The notes under the pieces are model-generated. The model was not told the DNA's origin. It worked only from the letters and a program-made list of their open reading frames with translations, and ran no database searches. Shown piece after piece: positions 1-39,875 of a stretch of 57,246 nt of DNA. The DNA comes from Acidobacteriota bacterium. Its GTDB lineage: Bacteria; Acidobacteriota; Vicinamibacteria; Vicinamibacterales; UBA2999. Position 1 is the stretch's first letter, and the number at the start of each line of letters is the position of its first letter. The stretch spans positions 1-57,246 of the forward strand of contig JADZBZ010000214.1 of assembly GCA_020851835.1 (NCBI GenBank), in the 5' to 3' direction. Made by a program: the position numbers and the translations under genes.

Positions 1-126
1 CGTCCGACGCTGGTGCCGGGGTCATCCGCCCTGTGGCGAGGGGGCGAAGATCGAACGCAGCACGGGCGTCAGCGTCTGATAACGTTGACTCCGTTACCTG
101 CGGACCCGTTCATAGCGACTATCGTC
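1..126 (+). repeat. Junction repeat, copy 1 (long form: 30-nt 5' extension + 96-nt core at 31..126); may be cut by the window edge
   Basis: nt 31..126 identical 96/96 to 4372..4467, 10412..10507, 18590..18685 and 34480..34575. nt 1..30 identical to 4342..4371. Confidence 0.95.
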
Positions 127-422
127 CTGCGCCCGCCGACGCGAAAGAGAAGATCGGCGTCGTCATCGCCATCGCGGAGGACGGCCTCACCTCCGCGGTG
201 AAGCGCGGCGAGAACAGCGGCCGCACCCTCGCGCACACGGCCGTCGCACGGCGACTCGAGTCGATCGGCGCGCTCGACCGCGACGCCTTCGCCGGCGAGG
301 GGCAGTGGAAGCTGAACGCCGCGTGGCGCCCCTCGTCGCTCCGGGTTATCGCCTTTCTTCAAGGGCAGACGTCCCATCGAGTGTACGGCTCGGCGCAGGC
401 GCGCCTGTCGTCGCCCCGCTGA
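127..422 (+). pseudogene. DUF1223-family protein, C-terminal ~95 aa only (5'-truncated at the repeat)
   Basis: Translation ...VKRGENSGRTLAHTAVARRLE...LRVIAFLQ... resembles the C-terminal part of DUF1223 proteins. It starts directly at the repeat's right end, with no N-terminal CxxC region. Confidence 0.55.
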
Positions 423-1152
423 GCACTCGTCGCCCCGGTATGAGCATCGGCACCATCCGCCGATAGTTCGCGTACGCGGAGCCGTGCTCGGCGACCAGGT
501 CGTGCTCCTCGAACTGGATCGCCAGGACGATGTAGGCGGTCGTCACGAGCGCGAAGACGAGATGCGCCAGCGTCATCGTCGGCGTCATCCAGAAGGCGAA
601 CAGGAACCCCAGGTACAGCGGGTGCCGGACGATGCGGTAGGGAGCCGGCGTCCGGAAGGCGATCGGCGAGTAGGGCTTGCCTCTGAGCGGCAGCCACACC
701 TGCCGCAGCCCGAACAGGTCGAAGTGGTTGATCAGGAACGTCACCACGAGCACCGTGCCCCATCCGCAGGCAAAGAGCGTCCACAGGATCGCCCGTGCGG
801 CGGCGTTGTCGACGGACCAGATCGAGCCGCCGAGAGGACGCCACTGCCAGAAGAGCAGCAGCAGGGCAAGGCTCGCGCAGAGGACGTAGGTGGAGCGCTC
901 GATGGCCCACGGCACGATCTGGGTCCAGCGCTCCTTGAACCACCGCCGCGCCATCACGCTGTGCTGGACGGCGAAGATCGTGAGCAGGCCGCAATCGATC
1001 GCCAGCGCGGCCGGCAGCGAGCCCTCGAGCGGGCCGTCGAGCCGCCGCGGTACCGCGAAGCCGCCCACGAATGCGATCGCGTAGAGGAACGTGACGAGAA
1101 ACACGAGGTAGGCGGCGAGGCCGTACCCGAAAAACAGCAGACGCTTGACCAT
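346..1152 (-). CDS. Polytopic membrane methyltransferase, ICMT/MddA-like family
   Basis: Starts MVKRLLFFGYGLAAYLVF. Multiple TM helices. C-terminal motif HFDLFGLRQ...YRIVRHPLYLGFLFAFW...EEHDL is typical of isoprenylcysteine/methanethiol S-methyltransferase-type enzymes. The longer ORF 346..2328 is an antisense artefact. Confidence 0.7.
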   Translation of the reverse strand: MVKRLLFFGYGLAAYLVFLVTFLYAIAFVGGFAVPRRLDGPLEGSLPAALAIDCGLLTIFAVQHSVMARRWFKERWTQIVPWAIERSTYVLCASLALLLLFWQWRPLGGSIWSVDNAAARAILWTLFACGWGTVLVVTFLINHFDLFGLRQVWLPLRGKPYSPIAFRTPAPYRIVRHPLYLGFLFAFWMTPTMTLAHLVFALVTTAYIVLAIQFEEHDLVAEHGSAYANYRRMVPMLIPGRRVLSGATTGAPAPSRTLDGTSALEERR

Positions 1153-1266
1153 GCGATCCTCCTTCGTCTGGAAGCATCGCCGGTCCACCGCCGTCCGCCC
1201 ATCGGCGGATTGTCCCGATTCAGGTAGAATCGCGCCCCTAGACATGAGGCAAATGTCCCGCCCGTC

Positions 1267-2343
1267 ATGACCGCACCCGGACGCATTCGCCAGCACGTCC
1301 GTTACGTCACCGCCGGTGACGGCACCCGCCTCGCGTGGGCCGAGGCCGGGGCCGGGCGTCCGCTCGTCAAGGCCGCCAACTGGCTCACGCACCTGGAATA
1401 CGAGCTGGACAGCCCGGTGTGGCGCCACTGGCTGCAGTTCCTCTCGTCGCATTTTCGATTCATCAGGTTCGACGAACGAGGCTGCGGCATGAGCGGATGG
1501 GGCGGAGGGCCGCTCACCGTGGAGCGTTGGACCGGGGATCTCGAGACGGTCATCGATGCGGCGCGCCTCGATGGGCCCGCGATCCTCCTGGGCATCTCGC
1601 AGGGTGCGGCGAGCTGCATCCAGTATGCGATTCGGCACCCGGAGCGCGTCTCGCACCTGGTGCTCTACGGTGCCTATGCGCACGGCGTGCTGCACCGCGG
1701 CACGCCCATGACCCGGCTCGCCTACCAGGCGATGGTGGATCTCGCGCGCGCCGCGTGGGGCACGGACAACCCGGCCTTCCGCCAGGTCTTCACCTCGCGC
1801 TTCATTCCCGGCGGGACGCCCGAGCAGCTGCAGTGGTGGAACGAGCTGTGTCTGAAGACGACTACTGGCGAGATCGCGGCCACCTTGTTCCAGGCGCGGG
1901 CGGAGGTTGACGTGTCGGCCCTGCTCGGCCAGGTGCGCGTCCCCACGCTGGTGCTGCACGGGACCGACGATCACATCGTGGCGATCGACGAAGCGCGCTT
2001 CCTCGCGAGCGGCATACCGGGCGCGGAGTTCGTCGAGCTCGACTCGCGCAACCACGTCCTGCTGGAACACGAGCCCGCGTGGGCGCGTTTCCAGGACGCG
2101 GTGCTGGACTTCGTGCAGCGTGGCGCGGTGGCGGGGAATTCTCCCTTCGCCGCGCTTTCGGCGCGCGAGCGGGAGGTGCTGGCCGCGATGGCAGACGGCC
2201 TGAGCAACACGGAGATCGCGGAGCGGCTGCAGATCAGCGAGAAGACGGTGCGCAACCACGCATCGAACGTCTTCGACAAGCTGGGCGTCTGGTCGCGCGC
2301 GCAGGCGATCGTCTTCGCGCGCGACCACGGATTCCGGCGGTGA
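1267..2343 (+). CDS. alpha/beta-hydrolase domain fused to a C-terminal LuxR-type HTH regulator
   Basis: N-terminus is alpha/beta-fold-like (LLGISQGAA nucleophile-elbow type motif). C-terminus REREVLAAMADGLSNTEIAERLQISEKTVRNHASNVFDKLGV is a classic LuxR/GerE HTH. Confidence 0.8.
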   Translation: MTAPGRIRQHVRYVTAGDGTRLAWAEAGAGRPLVKAANWLTHLEYELDSPVWRHWLQFLSSHFRFIRFDERGCGMSGWGGGPLTVERWTGDLETVIDAARLDGPAILLGISQGAASCIQYAIRHPERVSHLVLYGAYAHGVLHRGTPMTRLAYQAMVDLARAAWGTDNPAFRQVFTSRFIPGGTPEQLQWWNELCLKTTTGEIAATLFQARAEVDVSALLGQVRVPTLVLHGTDDHIVAIDEARFLASGIPGAEFVELDSRNHVLLEHEPAWARFQDAVLDFVQRGAVAGNSPFAALSAREREVLAAMADGLSNTEIAERLQISEKTVRNHASNVFDKLGVWSRAQAIVFARDHGFRR

Positions 2344-4206: not shown

Positions 4207-4341
4207 GGGTACTCCCTTTCGGCGGGGTCCGGCCGCCTCTGCACGCCGTGCGCATTGTGGCACAGACCACCCAGTGCGGAGTTGCTGTCCCGCCACCTGG
4301 CCCGTCACCCGATCAACGGCCGTCACCTGGCTTTTGGCCCA

Positions 4342-4467
4342 CGTCCGACGCTGGTGCCGGGGTCATCCGCCCTGTGGCGAGGGGGCGAAGATCGAACGCA
4401 GCACGGGCGTCAGCGTCTGATAACGTTGACTCCGTTACCTGCGGACCCGTTCATAGCGACTATCGTC
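4342..4467 (+). repeat. Junction repeat, copy 2 (long form; core 4372..4467)
   Basis: Identical to nt 1..126. Lies between the 5' UTR of the 2344..4206 gene and the 3' end of the TetR gene. Confidence 0.95.
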
Positions 4468-5185: not shown

Positions 5186-5190
5186 GGTCT

Positions 5191-9694: not shown

Positions 9695-10081
9695 TCACGT
9701 TGACCGCGATGCGCCGCGCTGCGACAGCGTGACCAGCAGCAGGAGGGGAAGCGCCATCCAGGCCAGCGGGACCAGCGTGTAGCCGAGGTAGCGCGCGTGG
9801 TGTCTGAGCACGCGGCCGAGCGCACGGAAGACAGCTGGCAGCGAGTCGTTGAACAGGCGCATCTCGAACAGCCCGGCCTGGACGGCGCGTTTCTCCGCGG
9901 CCATGCCCGCCCGGTTCGAGGTGCGGCCGACCACCCACAGTATCGCCACCCCGGTGGCCGCGGACACCAGCAGCAGCGTGGCGAGCGGCGCGACGCGGAC
10001 AGCCGGTGCGAGCGTGGCGTCGGCGGCCGCCACGGCCGCCGCGTTCAGCGCCGCCAGGGCCTGCTCAGGAAATGTAGCCAA
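9695..10081 (-). CDS. Hypothetical membrane protein (possibly 3'-frameshifted)
   Basis: TM segments. Homologous-looking reading continues in another frame below 9695. No family recognised. Confidence 0.35.
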   Translation of the reverse strand: MATFPEQALAALNAAAVAAADATLAPAVRVAPLATLLLVSAATGVAILWVVGRTSNRAGMAAEKRAVQAGLFEMRLFNDSLPAVFRALGRVLRHHARYLGYTLVPLAWMALPLLLLVTLSQRGASRST

Positions 10082-10256
10082 GCCCCTTCAGCTTCTTCCT
10101 GATGTCCTCCTCGGAGTCGGAGCCGTCCAGCTTGGCCAGTTCCTTCTCGAGGATGTGGGTGATGAACTCGTCGACCGACGCATAGCCCGCGAGGTCCGCG
10201 TAGCGCTTGGCGCGAGCCACCAGGGCCTTGTCCAGCTTGATACCCGATCCGAACAT
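10065..10256 (-). CDS. Small ribbon-helix-helix-like protein (antitoxin-like)
   Basis: 63 aa. GIKLDKALVARAKRYADLAGYASVDEFITHILEKEL fits a beta-strand/helix/helix RHH layout. Confidence 0.45.
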   Translation of the reverse strand: MFGSGIKLDKALVARAKRYADLAGYASVDEFITHILEKELAKLDGSDSEEDIRKKLKGLGYIS

Positions 10257-10411
10257 GTCAGGGCGCCTCGCTTCGCCTGGGGAAGTCGTTGATGCCGAAC
10301 TCGGCGAGCAGCGCGGCCGCCAGTTGCTGCAGCGTTGGCGCCGGCCGCTTCAACGGCCGGCTGCTCAGGAGCACGCCCGGCACGGCCTCGTGAACCATGC
10401 AGTGGTCGCCG

Positions 10412-10507
10412 CTGTGGCGAGGGGGCGAAGATCGAACGCAGCACGGGCGTCAGCGTCTGATAACGTTGACTCCGTTACCTGCGGACCCGTTCATAGCGAC
10501 TATCGTC
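10412..10507 (+). repeat. Junction repeat, copy 3 (96-nt core)
   Basis: 96/96 identical to the other core copies. Left flank is the 5'-truncated end of an unknown minus-strand ORF; right flank is the truncated amidohydrolase. Confidence 0.95.
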
Positions 10508-10682: not shown

Positions 10683-10791
10683 GAGAAGCGTTCCTCCAAG
10701 GCAGAGCTTACGCCGCCTGGCAACGTGCGTGCGCGCGATTGCGGCTCATGAGCAGGCCGCCCAACACCATGAGCGATGGTATATTTCTGCC

Positions 10792-11037
10792 ATGCTGACT
10801 ACCATTGACGGGGCCGGTCGAATTGTCATTCCAAAGGCCACTCGCTCGAGGCTGGGCCTCGAGGCCGGCAGCGTGGTCGAAGTTCGTGAACGCGACGGAC
10901 TGCTGGAGATTGAGCCCGTGGCCACCGTGATGACGCTCAAGCCACGCGGCGGTGGGCTGGTCGCCGTTCCCGAAGAACCGCTGCCGCCCCTGACCGATGC
11001 GATGGTCCGGGCCACGCTCGAGGGGACACGGCGGTGA
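10792..11037 (+). CDS. vapB: AbrB/SpoVT-type antitoxin (VapB-like)
   Basis: MLTTIDGAGRIVIPKATRSRLGLEAGSVVEV is a SpoVT/AbrB swapped-hairpin motif. Overlaps the downstream PIN gene. Confidence 0.8.
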   Translation: MLTTIDGAGRIVIPKATRSRLGLEAGSVVEVRERDGLLEIEPVATVMTLKPRGGGLVAVPEEPLPPLTDAMVRATLEGTRR

Positions 11038-11438
11038 TCGCCGTGGACACGAGCGTGGCGGTAGCGGCGTTTGCCAGCTGGCACGAGGGGCACGCCTCGG
11101 CGGCGGCGGTGCTCACACGAGCGCCGAGGATTCCCGCCCACGTCGTGATTGAAACCTTCTCGGTCCTGACCCGCTTGCCGCCACCTCATCGGGCGCCTGC
11201 GGATGTGGTGCAGGCCTTTCTGGCAGGGCGGTTCGGCGATGCGCCCCTGGTGCTGCCGCCGCGGAGACACATGGGGCTGATCGAGATGGCGAGCCGCGAG
11301 GGGCTCACCGGCGGGGCCATCTACGACGCGCTGATCGCGGCCACCGTGCTGCATGCCGGCGCACGGCTGGTCACGCGGGATCAACGGGCGCGGATCATCT
11401 ACGACCGCGTGCGTGTGCCGTACGACTTCCTTGGCTGA
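11034..11438 (+). CDS. vapC: PIN-domain toxin (VapC)
   Basis: MIAVDTSVAVA... and ...GGAIYDALIAATVL... with acidic PIN residues. Coupled to vapB. Confidence 0.8.
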   Translation: MIAVDTSVAVAAFASWHEGHASAAAVLTRAPRIPAHVVIETFSVLTRLPPPHRAPADVVQAFLAGRFGDAPLVLPPRRHMGLIEMASREGLTGGAIYDALIAATVLHAGARLVTRDQRARIIYDRVRVPYDFLG

Positions 11439-11799
11439 CCCGCGCCTCTGGCGCGATGGAGCAGCGTGGGGTCGTTCATCTGCGGAGAGGTTCTCGGCGT
11501 CGCGCGGGTCGGGCACGCACCGCCGGATGACGTTCCGGAGGCCCCGCCCCGCGTTCCAGGACGTCGACAATGCGCCGGTTCGAATCGAGCGCCGTCAGCG
11601 CCAGGCCCGTAAGCCCTCCCTCTACGGGATGTAGACGGATGGTCGGCGCCGGATGTTACGCGCGGGTGGTCACGCTCCGCACGTAGCGACCCACCGCATG
11701 AGTGATGAGGCCTCCGCTCAGCATGGTCACGGCGACAGGGAAACCTCGACGTCGCGCAGCAGCCAGGCCGACACGCCCAGCGCGACGACGACGTAGGCG

Positions 11800-11926
11800 G
11801 CCCGCGCCAGGCAACCAGCGCCGCGATCTCGGCGATGCTGGCGCCCAGCCAGTAGTGGAGGCGAACGGCCGTCTGGTAGACATCGCGCAGTTCGTCCACC
11901 GAGGCCAGGATGGCGCGCCGGCCATC
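11800..11926 (-). pseudogene. Sigma-70 (ECF-type) region 4 fragment
   Basis: ...ELRDVYQTAVRLHYWLGASIAEIAALV... resembles a region 4.2 HTH. Stop immediately upstream and the frame is lost downstream. Confidence 0.35.
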
Positions 11927-17866: not shown

Positions 17867-17995
17867 ACCACCGTGCTGCATGCCGGCGCACGGCGGGTCA
17901 CGCGGGATCAACGCGCCCGGATCACCGACGACCGCGTGCGCGTGCCGTACGATTTCCTCGAGTGACCCGCGCCTCTGGTGCCATGGCGTAGCGGG
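17867..17995 (+). pseudogene. Orphan 3' fragment of a vapC paralogue (plus ~30 nt of its downstream sequence)
   Basis: DNA aligns to 11339..11470 with scattered mismatches. Encodes ...TVLHAGARRVTRDQRARITDDRVRVPYDFLE*. Confidence 0.7.
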
Positions 17996-18200
17996 GCGGC
18001 TGCTTGACCCCGGCCCGCCAGTCCAGCATCACCGTGAGCGGCCGCGTGCCGCCCGTCCCTCATCGACGCCCACCACGGCGGGCAGCGTCACGGTTGGTGA
18101 CTGCCCGGTCTGCGCCCCGGCCGGCGCGGCGCTCGGGAACCCGAGCAGCGCCGCGAGCACGCCGGCGGGACGCGAGAAAGGGCAGATGCGCATCGCAGCC

Positions 18201-18589
18201 TCATGTCCCGCCGCGCGGGCGGAGCGGCAGCGTCCACACGTTGCCGCGCCGCTCGCCGCGCTCGTAGACCACGAGGTCGCCGCGACGCGACCAGTCCGGG
18301 TACCGGACGTAGACGTTGGCGGGGCCGGCGGGCAGCATCACACCTCGCCGGCGGGTGGCGACGTCGATCCACTGGAGGCTCCATCGCCCCGCGCGCAGCA
18401 TGGCCACCGCGATCCGGGTACCGTCGGGCGACCAGCTCCGCACCCAGGTCTGGCCCGGCTCGTCGGTGAGCCGCCGGAGTGCCCCCGTCGCGAGATCGAT
18501 GACGCCGGCATGCGTGGAGGTGCCGTCCTTGATCTCCACGGCGAGCCGCCGCTCGTCCGGCGACCAGGCGGGATAGCCCACCCACACGG
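18201..18589 (-). pseudogene. TolB-like (PD40/WD40-like beta-propeller) protein, C-terminal ~128 aa only (5'-truncated at the repeat)
   Basis: WSPDERRLAV...WSPDGTRIAV...YPDWSRRGDLVVYE are PD40 repeats. The reading frame runs straight into repeat copy 4. Confidence 0.6.
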
Positions 18590-18685
18590 CTGTGGCGAGG
18601 GGGCGAAGATCGAACGCAGCACGGGCGTCAGCGTCTGATAACGTTGACTCCGTTACCTGCGGACCCGTTCATAGCGACTATCGTC
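18590..18685 (+). repeat. Junction repeat, copy 4 (96-nt core)
   Basis: 96/96 identical to the other cores. Sits between the TolB-like fragment (-) and the quinone oxidoreductase fragment (+). Confidence 0.95.
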
Positions 18686-19626: not shown

Positions 19627-19989
19627 ATGACCCTGCACATCGGCACGCTGGTTGGGCCCAACGAGATCACGGCGACGGTCGGCGCCGGCGGGATGGGAGA
19701 GGTCTATCGGGATCCGGATTCGAATCTCGGACGCGATGTGGCCATCAAGATCCTCCCGGTCGAGTTCGCCCAGGATGCCGACCGCCGGATGCGCTTCGAA
19801 CGCGAGGCGCGGCTGCTGGCGTCGCTGAACCATCCGCACATCGCGCACGTGTACGGCCTCGAGGCCCACGAGTCGTCTACCGCTCTGGTCATGGTTGAGG
19901 GCGATGACTTGAAGCAACATCTCGAACGGGGGCCGATGGCGGTTGAGGACGCCTGTGAAGGGGGGCGAATCTCCAATGAATCAACGCGT
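19627..19989 (+). pseudogene. Ser/Thr protein kinase, N-terminal ~110 aa only, decayed
   Basis: GAGGMGEVYR...GRDVAIKILP...FEREARLLASLNHPHIAHVYGLE (subdomains I-V) with small indels. Ends at the inverted repeat copy. Confidence 0.65.
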
Positions 19990-20073
19990 GACGATAGTCG
20001 GGATAAACGGGTCCCCGAGGTTGACGGAACCGGCGTTCTCAGACCTTCACGGGAGATTCGCCCCTCGCCACAG
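19990..20073 (-). repeat. Degenerate, inverted copy of the junction repeat (84 nt)
   Basis: GACGATAGTCGggATaAACGGGTCC...CAGAC...GATTCGCCCCTCGCCACAG aligns end to end with the reverse complement of the core. By eye roughly 70% identity with one ~12-nt deletion. Confidence 0.75.
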
Positions 20074-20369
20074 CGCGGATAGCCGGCGACATCATCTCGT
20101 GGGACCGGTGCTGTCGGTGGTGGCGGGGCACCACGCTTGGGCGAGGCCAGGCCTCCGGCCAACCCGCACACGAGCGTGCACCGTCCCGTGCCGGGGGGCT
20201 GGCGTACGCGGACAGGACCAACGACGGCGCACGCGTTACCAGGACGGGTCGTCGCGCGGGAGCGGCGGCGCCCGCGCCGGGCGCGGGGCCGGCACCCCCG
20301 CCGGCAACCCCAGGTGCCGCAGGATCCGCGCCGTCACCGTGCCCGCCTCCAGCAACGCCAGCAGCCGCA

Positions 20370-20551
20370 GTGCCCCGCCACAGGCTTCGGCGAAGCTGTC
20401 GCAGGCCGCCGCGGTCCTGAGCGGCGAGCCGGGCGCGATGACGCTGTGCTACCTGCAGACGCTCAACGAAATCGCGGCCGAGCAGAACTCGACGATCGTG
20501 TTCCCGCTGCCAATCGACCTGCTGGGCCTGATGCCGGGAGCCAAGCACTGA
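20370..20551 (+). pseudogene. SPFH/band-7 (stomatin/HflC-like) protein, C-terminal ~55 aa only
   Basis: ...LCYLQTLNEIAAEQNSTIVFPLPIDLL... is the conserved stomatin-family C-terminus. No upstream domain. Confidence 0.6.
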
Positions 20552-24846: not shown

Positions 24847-24890
24847 GAACGGCCCTTCTCAGACCTGCTCGTTCCTAGCGACTATCGTCT
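24830..24890 (+). repeat. Partial, diverged 3' portion of the junction repeat
   Basis: ...ACCTGC-TCGTTCcTAGCGACTATCGTC shares the invariant right end. The preceding GGTTAACGGAACGGCCCTTCTCAGACC resembles the hairpin region of copy 19990..20073 but is inverted relative to the terminus. Confidence 0.6.
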
Positions 24891-25324
24891 GCAGGTGGTC
24901 TACAACATCTTCGACCAGGCGCCGGAAGATGAGCTGTTCCCGGTGTGCCGGGATCTCAATGTCGCGGTCATTGCGCGCGTGCCGTTCGACGAGGGCACGC
25001 TCACGGGCAAGCTGACTGTGGACAGCAGCTGGCCGGAGGGTGACTTCCGCAACGCCTATTTCACTCCTGACAACCTGCGCGAGAGCGTGCGTCGCGCGGG
25101 AGGCGCTCCGCCCGCTGGTGCCGCCGGGCATGACGATGGCGGAGATGGCGCTACGGTGGATTCTGTCGAACCCCGACGTGAGCGTGGTGATTCCCGGCAT
25201 GCGCAAGGCGCAGCACGTGGAGGCAAACCTGGCCGCAAGTGATGCCGGGCCGCTTCCGGCCGAGCTGCTGGACCAGCTTCGAGCCCATCGCTGGGATCGC
25301 CGGCCTGCGGCCAAGTCTGACTAG
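24891..25324 (+). pseudogene. Aldo/keto reductase, C-terminal half, frameshifted (5'-truncated at the partial repeat)
   Basis: ...[41 protein letters not shown]... then a frame change near 25090 to ...[32 protein letters not shown]... Confidence 0.65.
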
Positions 25325-25452: not shown

Positions 25453-27648
25453 TCACTGGACGACGACGGCGATGTCATTCGTTGGTACGCCCGCGCCCAC
25501 GGCGTTCACCGCATGCACGCGCACGTAATAGATGCCAGGTGGAACCCCAGCGAACACCGCGCTGGTGGCGGCGCCGGCCGTGTGCACCTGTGCAATGTTG
25601 GACAAACCCGGTGCGGAGCCCGCCCGCACCAGATGACTCGTTGCATCGCCATCAGCCGGAGGCAGCCACGAGAGCGTCACCGTGGAGCCGGAGACGCTGC
25701 TTGTGAGGTTGCCAGGCATCGCCGGCGGCGACGCCACCCCTCCGGCGTTCACGAGAGTATCTATCGGCGGGGGCCCGAGGCCGGCAGGCGTCAGCGCCCG
25801 CGCGCGGACGAAGTAGTTCCCCGGCGGAACCGCGCACACCGTCAACGCCCGGCTGTTGAGGCCAATCGTCGCGATGTCGGTGAGCCCCGGCGCCGACCCC
25901 GCTTCCAAGACATATCCCGTCACCGCCGCCGCCGGATATGGCGCGCTCCAGGTAAGCGTAAGCCGCGAACCGCTCATCCATGCTTGTGGATTACCGGGGA
26001 CAGGCAGTCGCGGACCCGTTGCAGGCAGCACCTCGACGACGATCTCCTCCGAGGCAGGCCCCGTGCCATAGGCGTTCACACCCCGAACCCGGACGAAATA
26101 GCGCCCGACCGGCACGCCACCGACATGGAAACCGCGCTCATTGGACGTCAGACTGACGGCGGTTGTCCCTGGGCTGAAGCCGGCCTCCACGACGTAGGAG
26201 GTGGCGACGCCACCCCCTGAGGGCCCGAACCAGTACACCCAGACCGTGGCGTCTTCAACGGACCACCCAGGCGCGTCCGGCGCCGCGGGGGGCACGTCGC
26301 TGCGCAGCAGGAAGCCCACGCCAGTCGTGTGCGTGCCAGCCGTCACGACGATAGGCGTGCCGCCGGTGACGGCAGCTTCCGGTGTGCAGATCTCACCGGC
26401 GCATGGGACGTCATCGTAGACTTCGTGGCGGACGTACCCGTCTCTCGAGAACGCGTAATACGTCCCCGGGGGCAGGGCCGTGGACTGGTATTCGCCCGTA
26501 GAAGGCTCCGCCTTTCCGACCTCCACGGGCACGCCGGCTTCGAGGCGCCAGATACTCACGTAGGTCGAACCCAGCGACTGCCCTGTCTGCGCGTTGCGAA
26601 CGACTCCGCGGATCGTGCCGCCAAGGTCGAGGGCAAAGTTGACGCCGGTAGTCTCCGTCCCGAGCAACACCGGGATGGGAGTGCCTCTCGCAAAGTCGCA
26701 CGACCGCAGGGGACATTGAACTCCGCCGAACAGCTCCGAGACGAAGGGAACCTCAGGTGGAGCTTCGGCCATCGCCACGTACTCACCCCCGGCCATCCCA
26801 GTGAACCTGTAGGCACCCGAGGCGTTGGTCAACGCCGCGCCGGCCCATTCGAGACCGCCGGGCACCTTTGCATAGGCGAGCACTGTCGCGAAGGCGATCG
26901 GGAGTCCGGATGTTCCGTCGGTGACGATGCCCGTGAGGCGCCCCGCCGCGTCCAGTGCAAAGTCACGGTTTGCGACGGTCGCGCCCAACGTGACGTCGAT
27001 GGGGGTGCCGAGGATCGCATCGTGCCAGTCGCACACGCGCGGGCAGGATATGTTGTCGAAGACCTCATTCACGTAGTCCACCTGATTGGTGGTCTGCGCG
27101 TAGTAGCGGCCGGCCGGCAGGCCCGGGATGACGTAGCCGCCAGAGGCGCTGGTGTCGGCGAACCCCACTTCAACTGGCAAGCCAGTGACCATGGAAATAG
27201 CCTGCACCCGAACGCCCGGCAATGGCGCGCCGCCCGACGAGGTGACGGTCCCTTCGATCCGTCCGCCGCGATCGAGATCGAAGTCGGCAACCACCGTGGC
27301 GGACGGGACCAGCGCCAGCGGGGTGCCACTCTGGGTGGCGAGCCATTCCTGGCACGCGCCGTTACAAAGGATGTCGCCGTGGATCTCATTCGTGTAGCTG
27401 GTCCCCGACGAGGTGTTCCTGGTGAACACCCGGTAGGTGCCGGCGCTTCCGGTAAAGACGTAAGCGCCGTCGGCATTCGTCAGGCGAGGCGTGCACGCCC
27501 CGGACTCGGGGCAAATCATCACCTCGATGGTCACCGGCTCCCGCGTGGCAGCGTCGCGGACCCTGCCGGTAATGGTACCCACCTGGGCGAGTGCGGAGGT
27601 TGGAATGAGGACAGCAAGGATGCCGAAGGCGAGTGCGCGGAGAGCCAT
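25453..27648 (-). CDS. Secreted protein with repeated carboxypeptidase-regulatory-like (Ig-like) domains and C-terminal fibronectin-III-like repeats
   Basis: Signal peptide MALRALAFGILAVLIPTSALAQ. Repeated G.I.G.V......P.....V motifs. Three FN3-like repeats end ...VRV.AVNA.G.GP.S. Confidence 0.7.
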   Translation of the reverse strand: MALRALAFGILAVLIPTSALAQVGTITGRVRDAATREPVTIEVMICPESGACTPRLTNADGAYVFTGSAGTYRVFTRNTSSGTSYTNEIHGDILCNGACQEWLATQSGTPLALVPSATVVADFDLDRGGRIEGTVTSSGGAPLPGVRVQAISMVTGLPVEVGFADTSASGGYVIPGLPAGRYYAQTTNQVDYVNEVFDNISCPRVCDWHDAILGTPIDVTLGATVANRDFALDAAGRLTGIVTDGTSGLPIAFATVLAYAKVPGGLEWAGAALTNASGAYRFTGMAGGEYVAMAEAPPEVPFVSELFGGVQCPLRSCDFARGTPIPVLLGTETTGVNFALDLGGTIRGVVRNAQTGQSLGSTYVSIWRLEAGVPVEVGKAEPSTGEYQSTALPPGTYYAFSRDGYVRHEVYDDVPCAGEICTPEAAVTGGTPIVVTAGTHTTGVGFLLRSDVPPAAPDAPGWSVEDATVWVYWFGPSGGGVATSYVVEAGFSPGTTAVSLTSNERGFHVGGVPVGRYFVRVRGVNAYGTGPASEEIVVEVLPATGPRLPVPGNPQAWMSGSRLTLTWSAPYPAAAVTGYVLEAGSAPGLTDIATIGLNSRALTVCAVPPGNYFVRARALTPAGLGPPPIDTLVNAGGVASPPAMPGNLTSSVSGSTVTLSWLPPADGDATSHLVRAGSAPGLSNIAQVHTAGAATSAVFAGVPPGIYYVRVHAVNAVGAGVPTNDIAVVVQ

Positions 27649-27816
27649 GACGAGCCTTCCTCTGCCTGTGCCCCGAACGCAGGCTGGGTTCAGGCTTTGC
27701 GGGTCCGCTTCGGGTGCGGCGGAACAGGGCTGTGGCCGCGAGCGTACCTGATGGGGACCTCCGGGCCGTTACGCTCGAGAACGAAGCGGCACCTGAGCCA
27801 TCGTAGCACCTCTGCC

Positions 27817-27865
27817 GGGGCCTGGCACGAGCGGGCCGTTTTTGACGCAGTTCCTGCGTACTGCC
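27817..27865 (+). repeat. 49-nt direct repeat B
   Basis: 41/49 identical to 25328..25376. Lies ~170 nt 5' of the 25453..27648 gene start and at the broken 3' end of the D-aminoacylase remnant. Confidence 0.8.
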
Positions 27866-27894
27866 GGCCTTTGCCTTATCTCGTCCCCCGATAC

Positions 27895-28865
27895 CCAGGC
27901 CCGCGCAGCGCACGACATCGGCGAAGGCGCCGGGCCGGACCACTCCTCTGTCCCAAAGGCGCATCCCCTGGGCAGGGAGTGAGGTCATCTTGCGAACGGC
28001 CTCCTTCAGCGTGAGCAGCCGCTCCTCACGCACATACTTGCCGAGAATCCGCGCCGCGGACCCCCACGCGCGTGGGTGGACGCCGGCCGTCGGCGGCGGG
28101 CTGTCCGGCGCCATGCCTCCCGAGTCGGTGCCGCGCATCACCAATGGATGTCTCAGCGCCGCCTTCACATCGTCCTCGTTCATGAAGAACATCACACCGC
28201 TGCCGGTGGTGTCGTCCTGGCCGATGATGTCCATGAGGACGTCGAGCGGATCCTTCTGCTCCGCCTTGGCGATGTCGTCGAGCGTGCGGCCCTGATACTT
28301 CTTCAGTTCCGTGCGGCTGACGGCGGAGACGAGGTTGCCGGCGGCGCCGCCCGACCCGACGTACTGGTTCTCCCAGGCGGTGGACGGCGTCAGAATCTCC
28401 GCCTTGATCTTCGCGCGTCGCTGGATCGGTCAGCCGCTTGACCATGGCGTCGCGACCGCCTTCCCGCGCCCACACCGGCAGGCTTGAGTCTAGCGGGTTG
28501 CTGCCGGCGACGTACGGGTACTGGTCCGCGGCGATATCGAGGCCGTCCTGCCGCGCCCGTTCGATGCGCTGCAGCACCGCGGGCATGCGGCCCCAGGTCT
28601 GCTTGTAGGCGGTCTTGAGGTGATGGATGGTGGCCGGCACGCCAGCCTCGCGCGCGATGCGGAAGACCTCGTCCAGGCTCTGCTCGATCTCGTCGGCCTC
28701 GGAGCGCTGGTGGGTGATGTCGCTGCCGCCGAACCGTCCGGCGACCTTCGCCAGTGCCACCAGTTCGTCGGTGCGCGCGAAGCGGTCTGGCTGCCCGCCG
28801 CATGAGTCGATACACCCTGCACAGCGCGGCCGCGTGACGGGCCAGCCCGAGGCGTGTCCCGCCAT
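27895..28865 (-). pseudogene. N-acyl-D-amino-acid deacylase (D-aminoacylase) remnant, truncated at both ends and frameshifted
   Basis: ...TDELVALAKVAGRFGG...GVPATIHHLK...DQYPYVAGSN... then another frame ...FFMNEDDVKAALRHPLVMRGTDSGG...HPRAWGSAARILGKYVRE...MTSLPAQ... Confidence 0.7.
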
Positions 28866-28900
28866 CTCGAAACGTGCGCCGCCATGGCATCAGCACCAAC

Positions 28901-29023
28901 CCTCCGGGCGGTGCGGGTGGTCATCGGCGCTGTGGCGCGGGCAAATCCTGACGAATCAGGCCGTGCCAGCGTCTGATAACGTTGACTCCGTTACCTGCGG
29001 ACCCGTTCATAGCGACTATCGTC
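28901..29023 (+). repeat. Junction repeat, copy 5 (mosaic long-form variant)
   Basis: 28967..29023 (57 nt) is identical to core positions 40..96. 28901..28966 aligns to the long-form 5' part at only ~65% by eye (e.g. GGTCATCGGCGCTGTGGCG vs GGTCATCCGCCCTGTGGCG). Confidence 0.85.
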
Positions 29024-29065: not shown

Positions 29066-29647
29066 AGGATACGCCGACCGGGTTCGTCGCCGATTGGCCG
29101 GTTCATGAATCGCCAATCCATTGTCGTTGCCACAAATGCTGCCAACCCATCGGACCTCGTGCCGCTGATCCGAACGGAACTGCAGCAACTCGATCCCCTG
29201 GTGCCTATCGAGGTTTCGTTCCTGCCACAGGTGGTGTCCGACTCACTGAGCCGGCAGCGGCTCGGGATGTTGTTGATGGTGCTGTTCGGCACAGTCGCGC
29301 TGCTGCTGGCTGCGATCGGCGTCTATGGTGTGTTCGCCTACGCAACGTCACAACGCAGTCGCGAAGTCGCGATCCGGCTCGCCATCGGCGCGACGCCCGC
29401 GGAAGTGTTCCGCCACACCTTCGTGCGCGGGCAACTCATGGCCGTGGTCGGAGTACTCGGTGGGGTGATCCTGGCATACGCCGCCGGACGGGTGCTCACA
29501 GGCTCGCTCTATCAGATTCGAGCCGCCGACCCTCTCGTGCTGATCGCGTCGACGGCTATCGTGGCGGCTGTCGCCGCGCTGGCGACGGCGTTGCCGGCGC
29601 GTCGCGTCGCCCGGGCCGATCCGTGCGTGACCCTCAGGGACGAATAG
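29066..29647 (+). pseudogene. ADOP-family permease, C-terminal ~190 aa only (last FtsX module)
   Basis: ...SQRSREVAIRLAIGATPAEVF...RADPCVTLRDE* equals the terminal module of the intact ADOP genes. No upstream part. Confidence 0.75.
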
Positions 29648-33596: not shown

Positions 33597-34479
33597 CTAT
33601 CCTTTTTGCATCGCGGACAGGAAGTCGGCGTTCGACTTCGTCTTGCCCATTTTGTCGAGCAGCAGTTCCATGGTCTCGACCGGCGACAGCGGGTTGAGCA
33701 CGCGCCGCAGCACGTAGACGCGCTGCAGGTCTTCCTTCGGGATGAGCAGCTCCTCCTTGCGCGTGCCGCTCTTGAGGGTGTCGCTGGCCGGGAAGACGCG
33801 CTTGTCGGAGAGCTTCCGATCGAGGTTGATCTCCATGTTGCCCGTGCCCTTGAACTCCTCGAAGATCACGTCGTCCATGCGGGAGCCGGTGTCGATGAGC
33901 GCGGTGGCGATGATGGTGAGCGAGCCGCCCTCCTCGATGTTGCGCGCGGCCCCGAAGAAGCGCTTCGGCTTCTGCAGGGCGTTACTGTCGAGACCGCCGG
34001 AGAGCACCTTGCCGGACGGCGGGATCACCGTGTTGTAGGCGCGCGCGAGGCGCGTGATCGAGTCGAGCAGGATGAGCACGTCCTTCTTGTGCTCGACGAG
34101 GCGCTTGGCCTTCTCGATGACCATCTCGGCCACCTGCACGTGCCGCTGCGCCGGCTCGTCGAAGGTCGAGGAGATGACCTCGCCGTCCACCGACCGCTGC
34201 ATGTCGGTCACCTCCTCCGGCCGCTCGTCGATGAGCAGGACGATGAGGTAGACCTCCGGGTGGTTCTTCGCGACCGACTGCGCAATGTTCTGCAACAGCA
34301 TCGTCTTGCCGGTGCGCGGCGGCGCGACGATGAGGCCGCGCTGCCCCTTGCCGATGGGCGTCATCAGGTCCATGACGCGCGCCGACAGGTTCTCCGCATC
34401 GGTTTCGAGTTTGAGACGCTCCTGCGGATAGAGCGGCGTCAGTTCTCGAAGAACAGCTTGTCGCGCGCCTGGTCCGGCG
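33597..34479 (-). pseudogene. rho: Transcription termination factor Rho lacking the N-terminal RNA-binding domain, with a 1-nt frameshift near 34441
   Basis: ...[26 protein letters not shown]...[33 protein letters not shown]...[19 protein letters not shown]... aligns by memory to E. coli Rho from about residue 130 to the C-terminus. The 5' end abuts repeat copy 6. Confidence 0.85.
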
Positions 34480-34575
34480 CTGTGGCGAGGGGGCGAAGAT
34501 CGAACGCAGCACGGGCGTCAGCGTCTGATAACGTTGACTCCGTTACCTGCGGACCCGTTCATAGCGACTATCGTC
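34480..34575 (+). repeat. Junction repeat, copy 6 (96-nt core)
   Basis: 96/96 identical to the other cores. Sits between the rho remnant (-) and an IS701-like transposase remnant (+). Confidence 0.95.
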
Positions 34576-34639
34576 CAAACGGCAAGGTCCTCGGCTCTGG
34601 AGGGTCGACACTAGTACTACTTTGTCAGGTTCACGGGTG

Positions 34640-35165
34640 GGCTGATCGATAGCGCTTGTACTGCGACGCGGGATCTCGTACGCTACGCGCGTGACGACGG
34701 GGCCGCACGGGCGCTCTTGCGCCGCCTGGGGCAATTCCTCGACGGCTTCAGCGCGTGCTTCAGTCGCCGCCCGCAACGCGAGGCGGCGAGTCGCTACCTC
34801 GACGGCCTGCTGAACGACAGCGAGCGGAAGTCGATGCAGGCGATGCATGGCCGGTTGAGTGATCCCGGCCAGTATCAGCCGCTGCAGCAGCACTTCATCA
34901 CGGACTCGCTGTGGGACGCCGCGCGGGTGTGGACGCAGCTGCGGGCGGCCGTGCCGGTGCGCGCCGGCATTCTCGCCATCGACGACACCGGCTTCCCCAA
35001 GCAGGGGACGGACTCGGTGGGCGTGCAGCGCCAGTACTGTGGGGCGCTCGGCAAGGTCGGCAATTGCCAGATGGCCGTCTCGAGCGCGCTGATCGCCGAC
35101 GGCCGCACGTGGCCGCTCGCCTTCGACCTGTATGTGTCGACATCGTGGACGGACGATGCGGATCG
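34640..35165 (+). mobile_element. IS701-family (IS4-like DDE) transposase, N-terminal ~170 aa remnant
   Basis: ...FSRRPQREAASRYLDGLLNDSERKSMQAM...ILAIDDTGFPKQGTDSVGVQRQYCGALGKVGNCQ... is typical of IS701-type transposases. No ATG start; truncated near 35165. Confidence 0.65.
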
Positions 35166-35189
35166 GCGCGCCCTGGTGGGTACTGCGTG

Positions 35190-35330
35190 TGCAAATGGCG
35201 AGAACGATTTCGAGTGCGCCGCTTGAGGGATTGACCGACGAGCCGCGTCCGGGGGCCCCCCCGCAAAGCCACCGACGATGCGGCCGGTGCAGGATTGTGA
35301 CGCGAGTTGTCAGAAACTGGCGCGCGGAAG
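35190..35330 (+). mobile_element. Possible IS630-type transposase HTH fragment
   Basis: ...LEGLTDEPRPGAPP... resembles the HTH-linker motif of IS630-family transposases. Very short and frameshifted. Confidence 0.3.
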
Positions 35331-36363: not shown

Positions 36364-36810
36364 TCACGACCTGTCCGGATCGGTCGGATGCACGGCCAAT
36401 TCGAACCCATGGCCTCCAGCGAGTCGAACGGCGGCGAAGTGACGCACGTCGCGGGTCGCGAGTCGATAGACGCCGATCGACTCGGCCAGCGCGACGATCG
36501 AGGAGTCGACGAGGCCCAGGCGAAGATCCGCGAAGCGTCGGTCCACGTCCATCGCACGCGCGAGCTGGCCGAGGGTTGGCGGCGCGTAGGTGAAGGCACC
36601 GCGCGACAGATCCTGCATGAACGCCTGCATCGCTGCGCGTTCGTCGCGAAGGAAGTAGTCGACCTCGGCGAGGACGAGTCCCGGAACGTAGCGCGTGCGG
36701 GCCTGGTCGATGACGCGGCGAAAGCGCCGGTGGTCTGGCGCGCCCTCGACGAGATAGTCGATGAGCGCGCCGGTGTCGCAGATGAGCGCGGCTGCGCTAC
36801 CGGCCGGCAC
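36364..36810 (-). CDS. vapC: PIN-domain toxin (VapC)
   Basis: ALICDTGALIDYL...LVDSSIVALAE... acidic PIN residues. Overlaps the upstream RHH gene. Confidence 0.8.
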   Translation of the reverse strand: MPAGSAAALICDTGALIDYLVEGAPDHRRFRRVIDQARTRYVPGLVLAEVDYFLRDERAAMQAFMQDLSRGAFTYAPPTLGQLARAMDVDRRFADLRLGLVDSSIVALAESIGVYRLATRDVRHFAAVRLAGGHGFELAVHPTDPDRS

Positions 36811-37027
36811 TGAACAGCTCGCGCTCGTCGCCGCGCTCTGTCAGCGTGCGGACGATACCCGCGCTCCGAGGCTTGGGGTGTCGGCGGTACTGCTCGAGCA
36901 CGAGGGCGAGATGCTGCCGGATGAACTCCGCACGCGAGACACCGCGCTCCCGAGCTGCCCGGGTCAGCAGGCGATCGTCCTCCGGATCCAGGGCAATCGT
37001 GGTCGCCTTCTTCAGTGAGAGTGCCAT
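36797..37027 (-). CDS. vapB: Ribbon-helix-helix (CopG-like) antitoxin (VapB)
   Basis: MALSLKKATTIALDPEDDRLLTRAARERGVSRAEFIRQHL has the RHH layout. Start at the internal ATG of ORF 36797..37303. Confidence 0.75.
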   Translation of the reverse strand: MALSLKKATTIALDPEDDRLLTRAARERGVSRAEFIRQHLALVLEQYRRHPKPRSAGIVRTLTERGDERELFSAGR

Positions 37028-37220
37028 GGAAGTAATATGACTCGACGAGGGGCGGCGGTCAAGCTGCGTCCGCGTCACCGGAGACACTGCGGCGGGCGCC
37101 GCCAAGTCGAAACAAGGATTGTGTAGAAACGGTGTAACGTCGGCCCGGACACCCCGACGAACCGGGGCGAACACGGCGTCACACCGACGAGCACCGGATG
37201 GCCGTAAGTCGCTGACTCGG

Positions 37221-38554
37221 CTATGCCTTGCGATGCGGGGGCGTTGCTCCGTGCAGGTGGCCGGAAGCACCTTCCAAGCGTGCGCCCTCAACCACTCGGC
37301 CATCTCTCCGTTTGAGTGGAATCAACAGTTTAGCGGAGGGCGGGGATCCCGCCAAACGCAAACTGTGACGTGACTGTGACGTAAGGCTTTCGGACAGCGC
37401 CAAGAACAGCGGGATTTCCACGCCGTCCTTGGGTGATTCAGGGCTGTCGCCGTTCCTGGCCCCGTCCGCGTCCGCGTCTCCACTCGTGCCGTCGCCATTG
37501 TGAGCGTCTCGACGTGATTCGTCCAGTGCGTCGAGGGCTTGCCGCTTCGCGTCGATCCGGATGTGCGAGTAGTGCTCCAGCATTCGCCGCGACAGGTGGC
37601 CGCTGATCGATTCGAGCACATGATCGGCGACGCCCAGTTCGGCGAGCTCGGTGATCACCGTGTGCCGCAGATCGTGGAAGCGGAATCGCGGCAGGCCGGC
37701 GGCGTCGCGGAGCGCCCGCCAGGCCGTGTCCCATTTCTCCATCGGCTTCGTCGGATCGTAGTGACCCCACTGGCAGGCCGGCCAGATGTAGTGGTCCGGT
37801 TCGGTGTGTCCGAGCAAGTCGGCTCTTTCGAGCATGCGAGCGACGGCGACGATGGCCGGCGCGTTGAGCGGGATGACGCGATGGCTCGTCTCGTTCTTGT
37901 TGCGCCGGACGTAGAGCAGCTTCTTCACGAGATCGACATCACGCCGGCGGAGGTGCTTCACCTCCACCGGCTGCATCGAGGGTTCGAAGCAACCATCGCT
38001 GCGCAGTAGACGTGTTCCCACTCGGGATTGGACGCAGCACTCTCAAAGAGTCGCTGCCGTTCCTCAGGTGTCAGCGCGCGGCCAACCGGCTTCTGACGCT
38101 CGGGCAGATTCCGTACATGGTCTGCAACCGCCCGCCACCGTCCGCACGACTTGAGGACGCGGCACAGGACGCCGACGTCCATGTTGATGGTCCGGTTCGC
38201 CTTGCCAGCGTCATGGCGCTTGCGCTGGTACTCGGAGATCGACCTCGCGGTGATCGCCGTGAGCGGCGTGTCGCCGAAGTAGCGCTTCAGCGTGATGAGG
38301 CGCTCTTCCTCGAACTCGATCGTTCGCGGCGAACAGTGCAGCCGCTTGCCGTCGATGTAGGCGTCGACGGCCTCGAAGAGCCGCTTCGGTCCCTGCTCGT
38401 GCGTTGCGACGGCGCCGTGACCAGCGTCCTCGATGAGCTGCCGTTCCTTCCGCTTGGCGTCCTGGAGGTTCGTCGTGTCGAGACGCTTTCGGTAGCGACG
38501 GCCATCGACCGTGAAGTCCGCCCAGTACTGGCGCCCGCGCTTCCAAAGACTCAT
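37221..38554 (-). pseudogene. Phage-type tyrosine integrase, frameshifted near 37960..38020
   Basis: N-terminal ORF (MSLWKRGRQYWADFTVDGRRYRKRL...) and C-terminal ORF (...HDLRHTVITELAELG...GHLSRRMLEHYSHI...) are in different frames. R..H.R.Y catalytic motifs are present. The 3' extension below ~37380 is read-through. Confidence 0.8.
37270..37312 (-). tRNA. tRNA-Ser 5' half only (acceptor 5' strand, D arm, anticodon-stem 5' strand and loop); non-functional remnant
   Basis: The minus strand reads GGAGAGATGGCCGAGTGGTTGAGGGCGCACGCTTGGAA..., a typical class-II tRNA-Ser 5' half. No matching anticodon 3' stem, T arm (GTTCGAATC) or TCTCTCC acceptor follows. Confidence 0.55.
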
Positions 38555-38639
38555 GGCCGCAGCTCCTCGGTTCCGGTCTGTCGTTCAGACGACGATTCCG
38601 TGCGGGCGTCAACGGCGCTGGCGCGGACGAAGGTCTCCA

Positions 38640-38900
38640 GGTCCGGCTCCAGCATACGCCGCGACAGGTGGCCGCTGATCGATTCGAGCACGTGATCGGC
38701 GACACCCACCTCGGCCAACTCCATGATGATGGTGTGGCGCAGGTCGTAGAACCGGAGCCCGTGCAGGCCGGCGGCATCACGCAGCGCCCGCCAGGCCGTG
38801 TCCCACTTCAACAACATCGGCTTGGTCGCGTCGTAGCAGCCCCACTGGCCGGCCGGCCATCCCTCGCCGATGGACTTCCAGCCGAGGCTCCCGAGTGTCG
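38640..38900 (-). pseudogene. Second tyrosine integrase, internal fragment (~80 aa) in tandem with the first
   Basis: ...WPAGQWGCYDATKPMLLKWDTAWRALRDAAGLHGLRFYDLRHTIIMELAEVGVADHVLESISGHLSRRMLE. The DNA aligns to 37575..37800. Confidence 0.65.
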
Positions 38901-38928
38901 AGAGAGCGACGTCCGTTGCCCAAGGGCG

Positions 38929-39213
38929 CTACCGCGTGATGGGTCGGCGCGCTTGATGATAGACGCAGACGATCGGCAACTCGTCGGGATGCCGCTGATA
39001 GTAGATCCGGAACGGCGGCACGCCCCAACTCCGCACGACCGCACCCGAGCGAAGCCACGAGAGTGGCCCATCAAACTCTCGGTCTGCGAGGCGGTCGATG
39101 CAGCGGGCGATCTCCGCGTCGAGGTTCGCGGCGGCGGTTGGATTCCGTTGGTTGAGATAGCTGACGACCTCGACGATGTCGGCGACCGCTTCCTCGGTGT
39201 TGGTGACCTTCAA
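38929..39213 (-). CDS. RelE/ParE-family toxin
   Basis: 94 aa. ...PFRIYYQRHPDELPIVCVYHQARR is a ParE/RelE-type C-terminus. Overlaps the upstream small gene. Confidence 0.7.
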   Translation of the reverse strand: MKVTNTEEAVADIVEVVSYLNQRNPTAAANLDAEIARCIDRLADREFDGPLSWLRSGAVVRSWGVPPFRIYYQRHPDELPIVCVYHQARRPITR

Positions 39214-39446
39214 CGCCCGAGAACTGCGTCGACGATCTCGCGAGAGCGCTTCGCGTCGACGACTCGACCTTGGCGGTACGACTCAAGCGCAGCTTCGATG
39301 CCGGCTTCTTCGTCAGGCGTCAGGGCGGGCGCCTCATCGTCAACGGGTTCGACCACGTAGCGGCCGGCAGGAAGCTCGCGCAGCTCGGTCGGAACGTCCT
39401 TGCCGTTCCAGGTGACGACCTTGGCGGTTCGGCTCAGGCCAGCCAT
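39210..39446 (-). CDS. Putative cognate antitoxin
   Basis: ~78 aa starting MAGLSRTAKVV. 4-nt overlap with the toxin gene. No family recognised. Confidence 0.5.
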   Translation of the reverse strand: MAGLSRTAKVVTWNGKDVPTELRELPAGRYVVEPVDDEAPALTPDEEAGIEAALESYRQGRVVDAKRSREIVDAVLGR

Positions 39447-39504
39447 TGTAGCTCCGGAACTGTGACGTGATCGCCGGTAGTGTCTCGACCGCACTGGAGA
39501 GCAT

Positions 39505-39759
39505 GTGAACGGCCTGCTGGACGAACTGCCCGAGGACGAAGCCGAGATGTACTTCTGGCGACTCTGGGATGTGCTCCGCCTCTATGTGAAACGCCGGAAG
39601 CCGCGGGTTGAGCGAATGCCGAGCGACTCCCGCAAACTCGCCCGTCAGATGTTTGTCTCGTCGCGACCCGTCGCATGGATGCGCAACGTGGCCTTACGAT
39701 CTTATTCTTTCGAAATGCTTGCGAAGAATATCGCCAAGGCGTTCGATGAGCCAATCTGA
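39505..39759 (+). CDS. Hypothetical protein
   Basis: 84-aa ORF in a locally lower-GC stretch. No family recognised. Confidence 0.3.
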   Translation: MNGLLDELPEDEAEMYFWRLWDVLRLYVKRRKPRVERMPSDSRKLARQMFVSSRPVAWMRNVALRSYSFEMLAKNIAKAFDEPI

Positions 39760-39875
39760 CTGCACTCCTACCCGTCGTCATCAGCAGTGGCCGGCCCAGC
39801 CCGCCGGTACCCGCACTGTCGAACCGGTCGGGAACCGTTGGCCCCGTGGGCCGCGGCTTCGCGAAGCCTACGTGC

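Follow-up and report, generated by a model that had tools for sequence, protein, structure and literature searches.

Truncated genes and IS91-family right ends in the left part of an acidobacterial contig

Insertion sequences (IS) of the IS91 family are reported to have separate oriIS and terIS ends, to make no target duplication and to undergo one-ended transposition (PMC13181058). The oriIS lies downstream of the transposase gene, and in IS91 the last 82 bp suffice (PMC13181058, PMC6218425). In Pseudomonas syringae pv. phaseolicola, 26% of IS801 transposition events are reported to yield fragments of the right end (229, 360 and 679 nt long), and 290-1431 nt of adjacent DNA can be carried along; most genomic fragments were judged by the authors to be reorganisations in which the IS acts as recombination homology (PMC3189936). 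Here we describe a contig of an Acidobacterium from soil/wastewater whose left part is a patchwork of whole and cut genes, and which carries several copies of a 96-bp repeat, R, the right end of an IS91-family element. The window is the entire contig (C214, 57,246 nt). We consider it probable that its left 39.9 kb consists of native chromosome and one decayed island, cut and rejoined at such right ends.

The metagenome-assembled genome (MAG) that contains the window (G000) comprises 577 contigs and 3.88 Mb, with an N50 of 7.8 kb, 92% completeness and 4.6% contamination. The G+C content of the window is 64-73%. Third-position G+C was used to call reading frames, because the high G+C makes raw lists of open reading frames (ORFs) noisy. 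Pfam profiles were scanned against 116 + 100 + 110 + 53 ORFs and NCBIfam profiles against 63 ORFs; tRNA genes were sought with ARAGORN, RNA families with Rfam, and repeats by self-comparison of the MAG and alignment. Five genomes of the same genus (G002, G008, G012, G013 and G018) served as relatives. The sequence is present in four runs of one study, which were compared as k=31 per-run contigs.

Identity of the 96-bp repeat

R, which an earlier note made from the sequence of the window had not mentioned, lies at 31-126, 4372-4467, 10411-10507, 18590-18685 and 34479-34575, in a single orientation and at 100% identity. The MAG contains 15 matches, of which 11, on C214, C212, C440, C540 and C201, cover R in full (ten at 100% identity, one at 99%). 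On any single contig, all copies have the same orientation. Among 60 other related genomes, R was matched only weakly and in three.

Contig C92 of the MAG encodes a 420-codon ORF with the domains Zn_Tnp_IS91 (PF14319, E 1.9e-15) and Y2_Tnp (PF04986, E 2.4e-23), and a 78-80% identical relative of R lies downstream of this transposase gene. The C92 transposase shares 41% identity with annotated ISCR1/IS91 transposases on plasmids, and transposases of this type occur in 74 of 301 genomes of the order (a count that takes in G000 and the unpublished G312). A 25-base end motif retrieved 11 metagenome loci and three loci of another MAG. The metagenome contig L048 carries a full element: a transposase 90% identical to that of C92, a spacer of ~545 bp and R, with one mismatch, at the right terminus. 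Comparison of three copies gives an element of 2054 bp with the left end TGGYGGAC. The right end reads ...GCGACTATCGTC and differs from the left end, and no inverted copies were seen (terminal inverted repeats are absent). Within R are an imperfect palindrome of 8 bp (GTCAGCGT/ACGTTGAC) and the tetranucleotide CGTC, which is invariant. The same end architecture is found downstream of the transposase in three distant IS91 relatives of the order, whose transposases are 58-60% identical. By eye, no shared bases were seen in the sequences that flank L048 and two C92 copies (three ends only, with no empty site). The architecture of L048, the C92 relative and the distant relatives, in all of which the end occupies the oriIS side downstream of the transposase gene, therefore identify R, on sequence grounds, as the right (oriIS-side) end of a 2.05-kb rolling-circle IS of the IS91 family.

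Other identities for R found no support. Rfam, searched to E 10, returned chance-level matches only, R folds no better than shuffled sequences (z -1.6 and -0.4), and a consensus scan for an outward promoter gave 0 sites. Features of a miniature inverted-repeat transposable element are lacking, as the ends are unrelated (no terminal inverted repeats) and the flanks share no duplication. An integron attC array does not fit either, as the units are 4-10 kb long and hold several genes on both strands; the fold is not above that of shuffles, and there is no Rfam match. A link between R and the neighbouring IS701 stump was rejected, since an IS701 paralogue on C81 lacks such a repeat. An exact search of JGI metagenome contigs with the 45-base head of R gave 0 matches, which is accounted for by a single mismatch.

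The MAG contains right ends only. All run to position 2835 on the L048 scale, and they start at 2357 (end of C201), 2630 (start of C440), 2652 (window position 4284), 2710 or earlier (window start and end of C540) or, in seven copies, 2736-2740. Positions 782-2356 of the R-type element are on no MAG contig. Diverged subfamilies and other metagenomes show the 2740 boundary again. R begins CTG-TGGCG and the left end of the IS begins TGGCG/TGGTG, so that five bases agree at an offset of 3; at the other truncation points there is no such agreement. Among nine external loci (8 distinct) whose left flank is 800 bp or longer, the transposase is present at L048 only. It is conceivable, if doubtful, that the 96-bp unit is a self-propagating, transposase-free "ori-only" mini-element, with its left edge a conserved internal termination site and an HUH transposase exchanging its flanks site-specifically, as relaxases do at oriT. 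If true, native genes throughout the genomes of Vicinamibacterales would be moved and truncated by a shuffling system of the rolling-circle type.

On C201 (locus L011, 1464-1544), the 81 bp that immediately follow a solo IS end on its right are conserved at 93% identity in G018 and G013, well over the average for the surrounding sequence. ARAGORN found no tRNA in this stretch, which could represent a regulatory site or a small conserved RNA.

Gene breaks at IS ends and their possible origins

Breaks in the DUF1223, TolB-like, qor, kinase, amidohydrolase and rho genes and in the ADOP tail lie at or within ~90 bp of an IS end (Table 1). The DUF1223 remnant begins at 127, the TolB-like stump extends to 18589 and the kinase stump ends at the inverted copy, while the amidohydrolase stump reaches the IS end at 28790 and the rho remnant ends at 34457-34478. 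Homology to relatives stops at the left edge of R in three of three testable cases (10413, 18581-18585 and 34480-34481); the left flank of the 10411 copy is matched in four relatives up to 10413, and the TolB-like homology, also in four relatives, covers 18219-18585 only. The two flanks of a window copy never come from one gene, and those of the copies at 18590 and 28967 lie 39-178 kb apart in relatives. The loci L043 and L046 are 100% identical over R and 1770 bp of right flank and differ leftwards from the first base of R. Thus, the same right junction exists with two different left sides.

By their gene order, the tested chunks are native chromosome and not foreign. The genes PadR-ADOP-CDGSH-rho are collinear in all five same-genus genomes up to the first base of R (34480-34481), and the aldo/keto reductase (AKR) and amidohydrolase genes adjoin each other in G012 and G008. 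The TolB-like gene and qor are collinear and 39-51 kb apart in G002, G012 and G008; the amidohydrolase and PadR-ADOP genes are 166-178 kb apart in G013 and G002. Self-comparison and depth indicate that every chunk is single copy in the MAG, with no duplicate. Native synteny and single copy together thus make both a foreign-DNA dump and replicative capture in this genome less likely. The 364-bp TolB-like stump is a displaced piece, because C383 spans the native locus without the 3.4 kb that hold this gene and the genes of the interval are elsewhere in the MAG. That the kinase stump is half of the kinase gene next to which qor lies in relatives was rejected, as C109 has that kinase intact and the stump did not match it.

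Of the two rho paralogues in the genus, the stump in the window is the native rho-A; rho-B is on C343. Most of the listed genus genomes carry both, rho-A beside the CDGSH gene and rho-B behind lon-engB (e.g., at C4:205716 and C4:1553141 in G002). G000 retains only rho-B, which is itself cut by the contig end on C343.

The earlier note had read the region as a dump of kb-sized chunks. In such a dump the chunks would be unrelated and no specific element involved, as might follow from uptake or illegitimate end-joining of random DNA. The housekeeping-type stumps (rho and qor), together with a second asd-lysC' on C540, are in keeping with this, as are some breaks (24.88 kb and 35.2 kb) that have no IS end. 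However, seven IS91-family ends stand at or beside breaks, the junctions carry one specific sequence, and the chunks are native and syntenic with relatives, down to the rho stump. We therefore regard an unstructured dump as highly improbable. Two observations behind it hold nonetheless: the pieces of the left 39.9-kb patchwork are cut regardless of gene boundaries, which differs from ordinary slow decay, and several stumps keep clean frames up to an abrupt break (the rho remnant scores above the equivalog cut-off).

The second asd-lysC' (C540 17778-19734, locus L014) is 73% identical to the window copy, as compared with 76-80% for the same-genus relatives, and its third-position G+C is higher (0.92-0.95). 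Its lysC is cut at the IS end that forms the contig end. This copy may be a xenologue or bin contamination.

Under the reading that we favour, native DNA cut and rejoined at right ends, rolling-circle transposition from oriIS would halt early at an internal site and leave a 96-bp right-end fragment, as IS801 does. Identical copies could then act as portable homology or as transposase substrates, with their flanks exchanged, moved or lost, and such reshuffling would leave gene stumps that are single copy and whose frames have not decayed. It would have occurred either by recombination between the identical copies or by transposase acting at the ends, and one-ended carriage of short pieces of adjacent DNA would be a contributing route. 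The events would be recent, because the copies are 100% identical.

In one-ended rolling-circle capture, by comparison, solo ends without a terminator would carry off the DNA on their left and build an ISCR-like array, possibly in another host. That left-flank homology stops exactly at R, with arbitrary far left ends, fits this, as does the single orientation of all copies per contig. So do the short islands of homology left of copies (364 bp of the TolB-like gene and 670 bp at 9744-10413) and the native locus on C383 without the TolB-like gene; IS801 likewise carries 290-1431 nt (PMC3189936). A replicative mechanism should, however, leave the source copy behind, and there is no donor duplicate of any chunk and single-copy depth throughout. 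In addition, the rho chunk stands in native synteny over 4.2 kb and holds the only rho-A copy of the genome. We consider capture an unlikely source of the patchwork as a whole.

The main rival is an assembly chimera, in which the assembler hopped between dispersed copies of R and joined unrelated 4-10 kb pieces that come from a single strain or more than one. Fragmentation of the MAG is severe, with 441 of 1154 contig ends at graph branch points: these share their terminal 127-mer with another MAG site, and none shares a 128-mer, which shows that the assembly graph used k=127. Chunk sizes (4.2, 5.9, 8.1, 10.2 and 5.5 kb) are near the N50, and adjacent chunks map to different contigs or to distant sites in relatives. 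The window begins within R, with its first 127 bases equal to the end of C540 (the k-mer overlap of the assembler), and C540, C440 and C201 end in R. The 184-bp copy at 4284-4467 exceeds k; its join rests on repeat resolution by the assembler and is less certain, and its last 126 bases are common to three left-flank and three right-flank contigs. Against this, the copies at 10411, 18590 and 34479 span 96-101 bp, which is less than k=127, and paths through them therefore require read words that carry both flanks. Within each of the four runs the depth is equal for all chunks (~10-11, 35-39, 22-26 and 11-13.5), and it co-varies over the runs. Single per-run contigs also cross the breakpoints that lack R, and they show no differences. 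Even in a chimera the truncations would remain, every stump-R junction being within one k-mer, and the missing halves (the N-termini of rho-A and qor) are absent from the MAG. On balance, a chimera seems improbable.

Several findings weigh against cutting and rejoining at IS ends as the explanation. The MAG lacks a full R-type element and its left end, and holds only the 81-88% relative on C92. When 13 ends were folded as a consensus, 0 pairs covaried in support of a subterminal hairpin that is conserved. No simple insertion, that is, a copy with both flanks contiguous in a relative, was found. The qor remnant starts 66 bp past R, and the ADOP tail ~45-88 bp past an IS end rather than at its right edge; the break near 25.4 kb, like those near 24.88 and 35.2 kb, has no IS end. 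The absence from the MAG of a donor copy of any chunk, which speaks against replicative capture in this genome, belongs here too. A plain deletion from the TolB-like gene to qor was rejected, since the 45-kb interval (in G002 and G012) has homologues on six other MAG contigs. The k=31 per-run contigs break at every R copy, which counts in favour of a chimera, and adjacency across R is something that we infer.

Gene remnants, decayed island and conserved core

The sharp contrast described in the earlier note, with at least 19 gene remnants in 39.8 kb and none thereafter, is real, whereas the count is too high. By Pfam, NCBIfam, self-comparison, ARAGORN and Rfam, 12 of the 20 items listed were confirmed, three are weak and five are absent from the scans (confirmed remnants are in Table 1). 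The weak ones are a sigma region 4 match (11816-11917, E 2e-4, under the curated cut-off), a DUF4412-like match (tail only, E 0.003, also under the cut-off) and an IS630-type piece, for which the sole match at 35.2-36.4 kb is HTH_32 (E 0.025). Profile scans did not find a first amidohydrolase near 0.4-1.2 kb, and a Pfam scan of 35.2-36.4 kb did not find an rve-type transposase piece. One of two proposed ADOP pieces stands, as the window has a single ADOP fragment. The supposed SPFH remnant corresponds to an ORF (23822-24874) without a family match, of which ~1 kb is matched in relatives. The half tRNA-Ser could not be recovered: ARAGORN found 0 tRNA genes in the window, and likewise in four other contigs, and Rfam found nothing. 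A T-loop motif scan gave 5 matches, as compared with 1.9 expected, none in a tRNA context.

Table 1. Features of the window. IS positions are on the L048 scale.
Feature	Coordinates	Strand	Evidence
Right-end IS fragment at contig start	1..126	+	IS 2710-2835; equal to 4342-4467; 98.4% to reverse complement of L048, 2710-2837
184-bp right-end IS fragment	4284..4467	+	IS 2652-2835; 98.4% to reverse complement of L048, 2652-2835
Solo 96-bp IS end R	10411..10507	+	100% to other copies
Solo 96-bp IS end R	18590..18685	+	IS 2740-2835
Older right-end fragment in inverted orientation, from a related IS91-family element	19987..20382	-	~IS 2426-2835; 78-80% to C92 element end; 77.6% to reverse complement of L048, 2426-2662
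Older right-end fragment, ~235 bp	28790..29023	+	80% to C92 19839-20096; last 57-63 bp = R (28967-29029 matches 18629-18691 at 100%)
Solo 96-bp IS end R	34479..34575	+	100% identical copy
DUF1223 gene without 5' part	127..419	+	Pfam PF06764 118-202/202; directly right of IS end
vapC 3' tail copy	17868..17996	+	129 bp, 88% identical to 11341-11469 (end of intact gene)
TolB/PD40-like stump, 5'-cut at R	18204..18589	-	TIGR02800 196-273/418 (match 18339-18572)
qor without ~73 N-terminal codons	18752..19627	+	NF008024 77-325/327; aligned as protein to three relatives
Ser/Thr kinase N-terminal stump, 3'-cut	19663..19959	+	NF033483 10-111/563; Pfam Pkinase 4-92/263; abuts inverted IS end at 19987
AKR C-terminal half, frameshifted	24889..25321	+	Pfam 160-205 and 237-289 of 291, two frames (24889-25288); 85-87% identity to G012 and G008
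Amidohydrolase (D-aminoacylase-like) stump, 5'-cut, frameshifted	27911..28772	-	NF006560 205-303 and 330-462 of 517, two frames; 87-89% identity to relatives across 27912-28791
ADOP permease tail	29111..29644	+	TIGR03434 626-803/803
rho (rho-A paralogue) without first ~130 codons, cut at R	33600..34457	-	TIGR00767 131-415/415, 532 bits
IS701-family transposase, 3'-cut	34615..35223	+	NF033540 2-153/363; Pfam DDE_5 2-148/272
Two integrase pieces	37224-38584 (frameshifted), 38554-38928 (short)	-	Pfam
Decayed island: PIN/RHH pair, frameshifted tyrosine integrase, integrase fragment, ParE	36367..39282	-	Pfam
Conserved syntenic core: asd, lysC, dapA, dapD, RR-HD, ffs, dnaX, ybaB, recR onward	39871..57246		Pfam; Rfam SRP at 47591-47689

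The left part also has intact genes, among them an alpha/beta-hydrolase-LuxR gene, TetR, three ADOP+PadR pairs, a methyltransferase, VapBC, RR-SpoIIE, a hybrid kinase, CDGSH, HicA, PIN/RHH and ParE. The VapBC pair (10767-11447) is 90-93% identical to G002 and G012, as compared with ~76% for the neighbouring genes, and this higher identity suggests a recent transfer of the module. An AhpD/peroxidase-related gene on the minus strand (12685-13617) is one frame through an in-frame stop at 13027-13029, with TIGR01926 positions 5-81 before the stop and 85-170 after it; the stop could be a selenocysteine codon or a nonsense mutation. Within the ORF at 23822-24874, the per-run contigs break at 24026-24521, where depth is ~1.5-fold, which points to a repeat or strain-variable segment. 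A 731-codon CarboxypepD_reg/fn3 gene (25371-27911) lies between the AKR and amidohydrolase stumps, genes that are separated by 182 bp in G012, and looks like an insertion.

The interval at 34.6-39.9 kb is an ordinary decayed island of integrase, IS and toxin-antitoxin genes. Two of its segments, 37574-37784 and 38646-38859, are 83% identical. To its right, the earlier statement that genes past ~39.88 kb are intact and syntenic is correct: all scanned full length, and 39871-56785 is collinear with four of the five relatives (G002, G018, G008 and G013), with no match in G012. The left boundary of the core is common to five relatives. The earlier note had also proposed to define the ancestral arrangement from relatives; upstream of asd it is not definable, as the five same-genus genomes share nothing there. 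Two repeats were noted in the core. Between dapD and the RR-HD gene (46104-46271) is a 144-164-bp repeat, 96-98% identical to pieces of C184 and C266, and the short stretch at 53112-53234 has counterparts of 75-85% identity on over 30 other contigs, often with several on one contig; a dispersed small repeat or a repetitive motif of coding sequence is the probable explanation.

Comparison with described systems

What might pass for a junkyard can thus be tested as an instance of IS91-family activity within the Acidobacteriota, whose mobile elements are little studied. Its more unusual points are the recurrent 96-bp boundary and the loss of a housekeeping paralogue, rho-A, that would be due to this activity. 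We found no paper on IS91-family miniature ends in Acidobacteria, which is not proof of their absence from the literature. For users of MAGs, R stands at many contig ends and junctions; stumps adjoining it should not be counted as independent pseudogenisation, nor their adjacency trusted without read support.

An island with a tyrosine integrase is one described counterpart. The 34.6-39.9 kb interval resembles it in having two integrase remnants, the IS701 stump, PIN/RHH and ParE, and in ending where conservation with relatives starts (~39.87-39.90 kb). It differs in that no tRNA or att repeat was found (ARAGORN in the window; Rfam in 35.2-40.1 kb), and it accounts only for the last 5 kb of the region singled out in the earlier note.

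ISCR and IS91 elements (PMC13181058, PMC6218425) are alike in their Y2 HUH transposase (~41% identity), oriIS downstream of it, variable DNA beyond the ori end and lack of inverted repeats. In contrast to ISCR, there are no resistance genes or integron context here, and most ends are solo, without a transposase. The end tetranucleotide is CGTC, as opposed to CTTG, GTTC or GTCC in ISCR/IS91.

A close likeness is to IS801 (PMC3189936): fragments consist of the right (ori) end only, with variable left truncation, are plentiful in comparison with full copies and are tied to chimeric or interrupted genes. As in IS801, each fragment is a continuous stretch from the right terminus to an internal point, whereas the window copies are not simple insertions with contiguous flanks. 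The present case, known from sequence alone, also differs in its Acidobacterium host (Vicinamibacterales), its 2.05-kb IS and its dominant fragment of only 96 bp with a recurring left boundary. We conclude that the element is an undescribed member of the IS91 family, whose solo ends behave as those of IS801 do.

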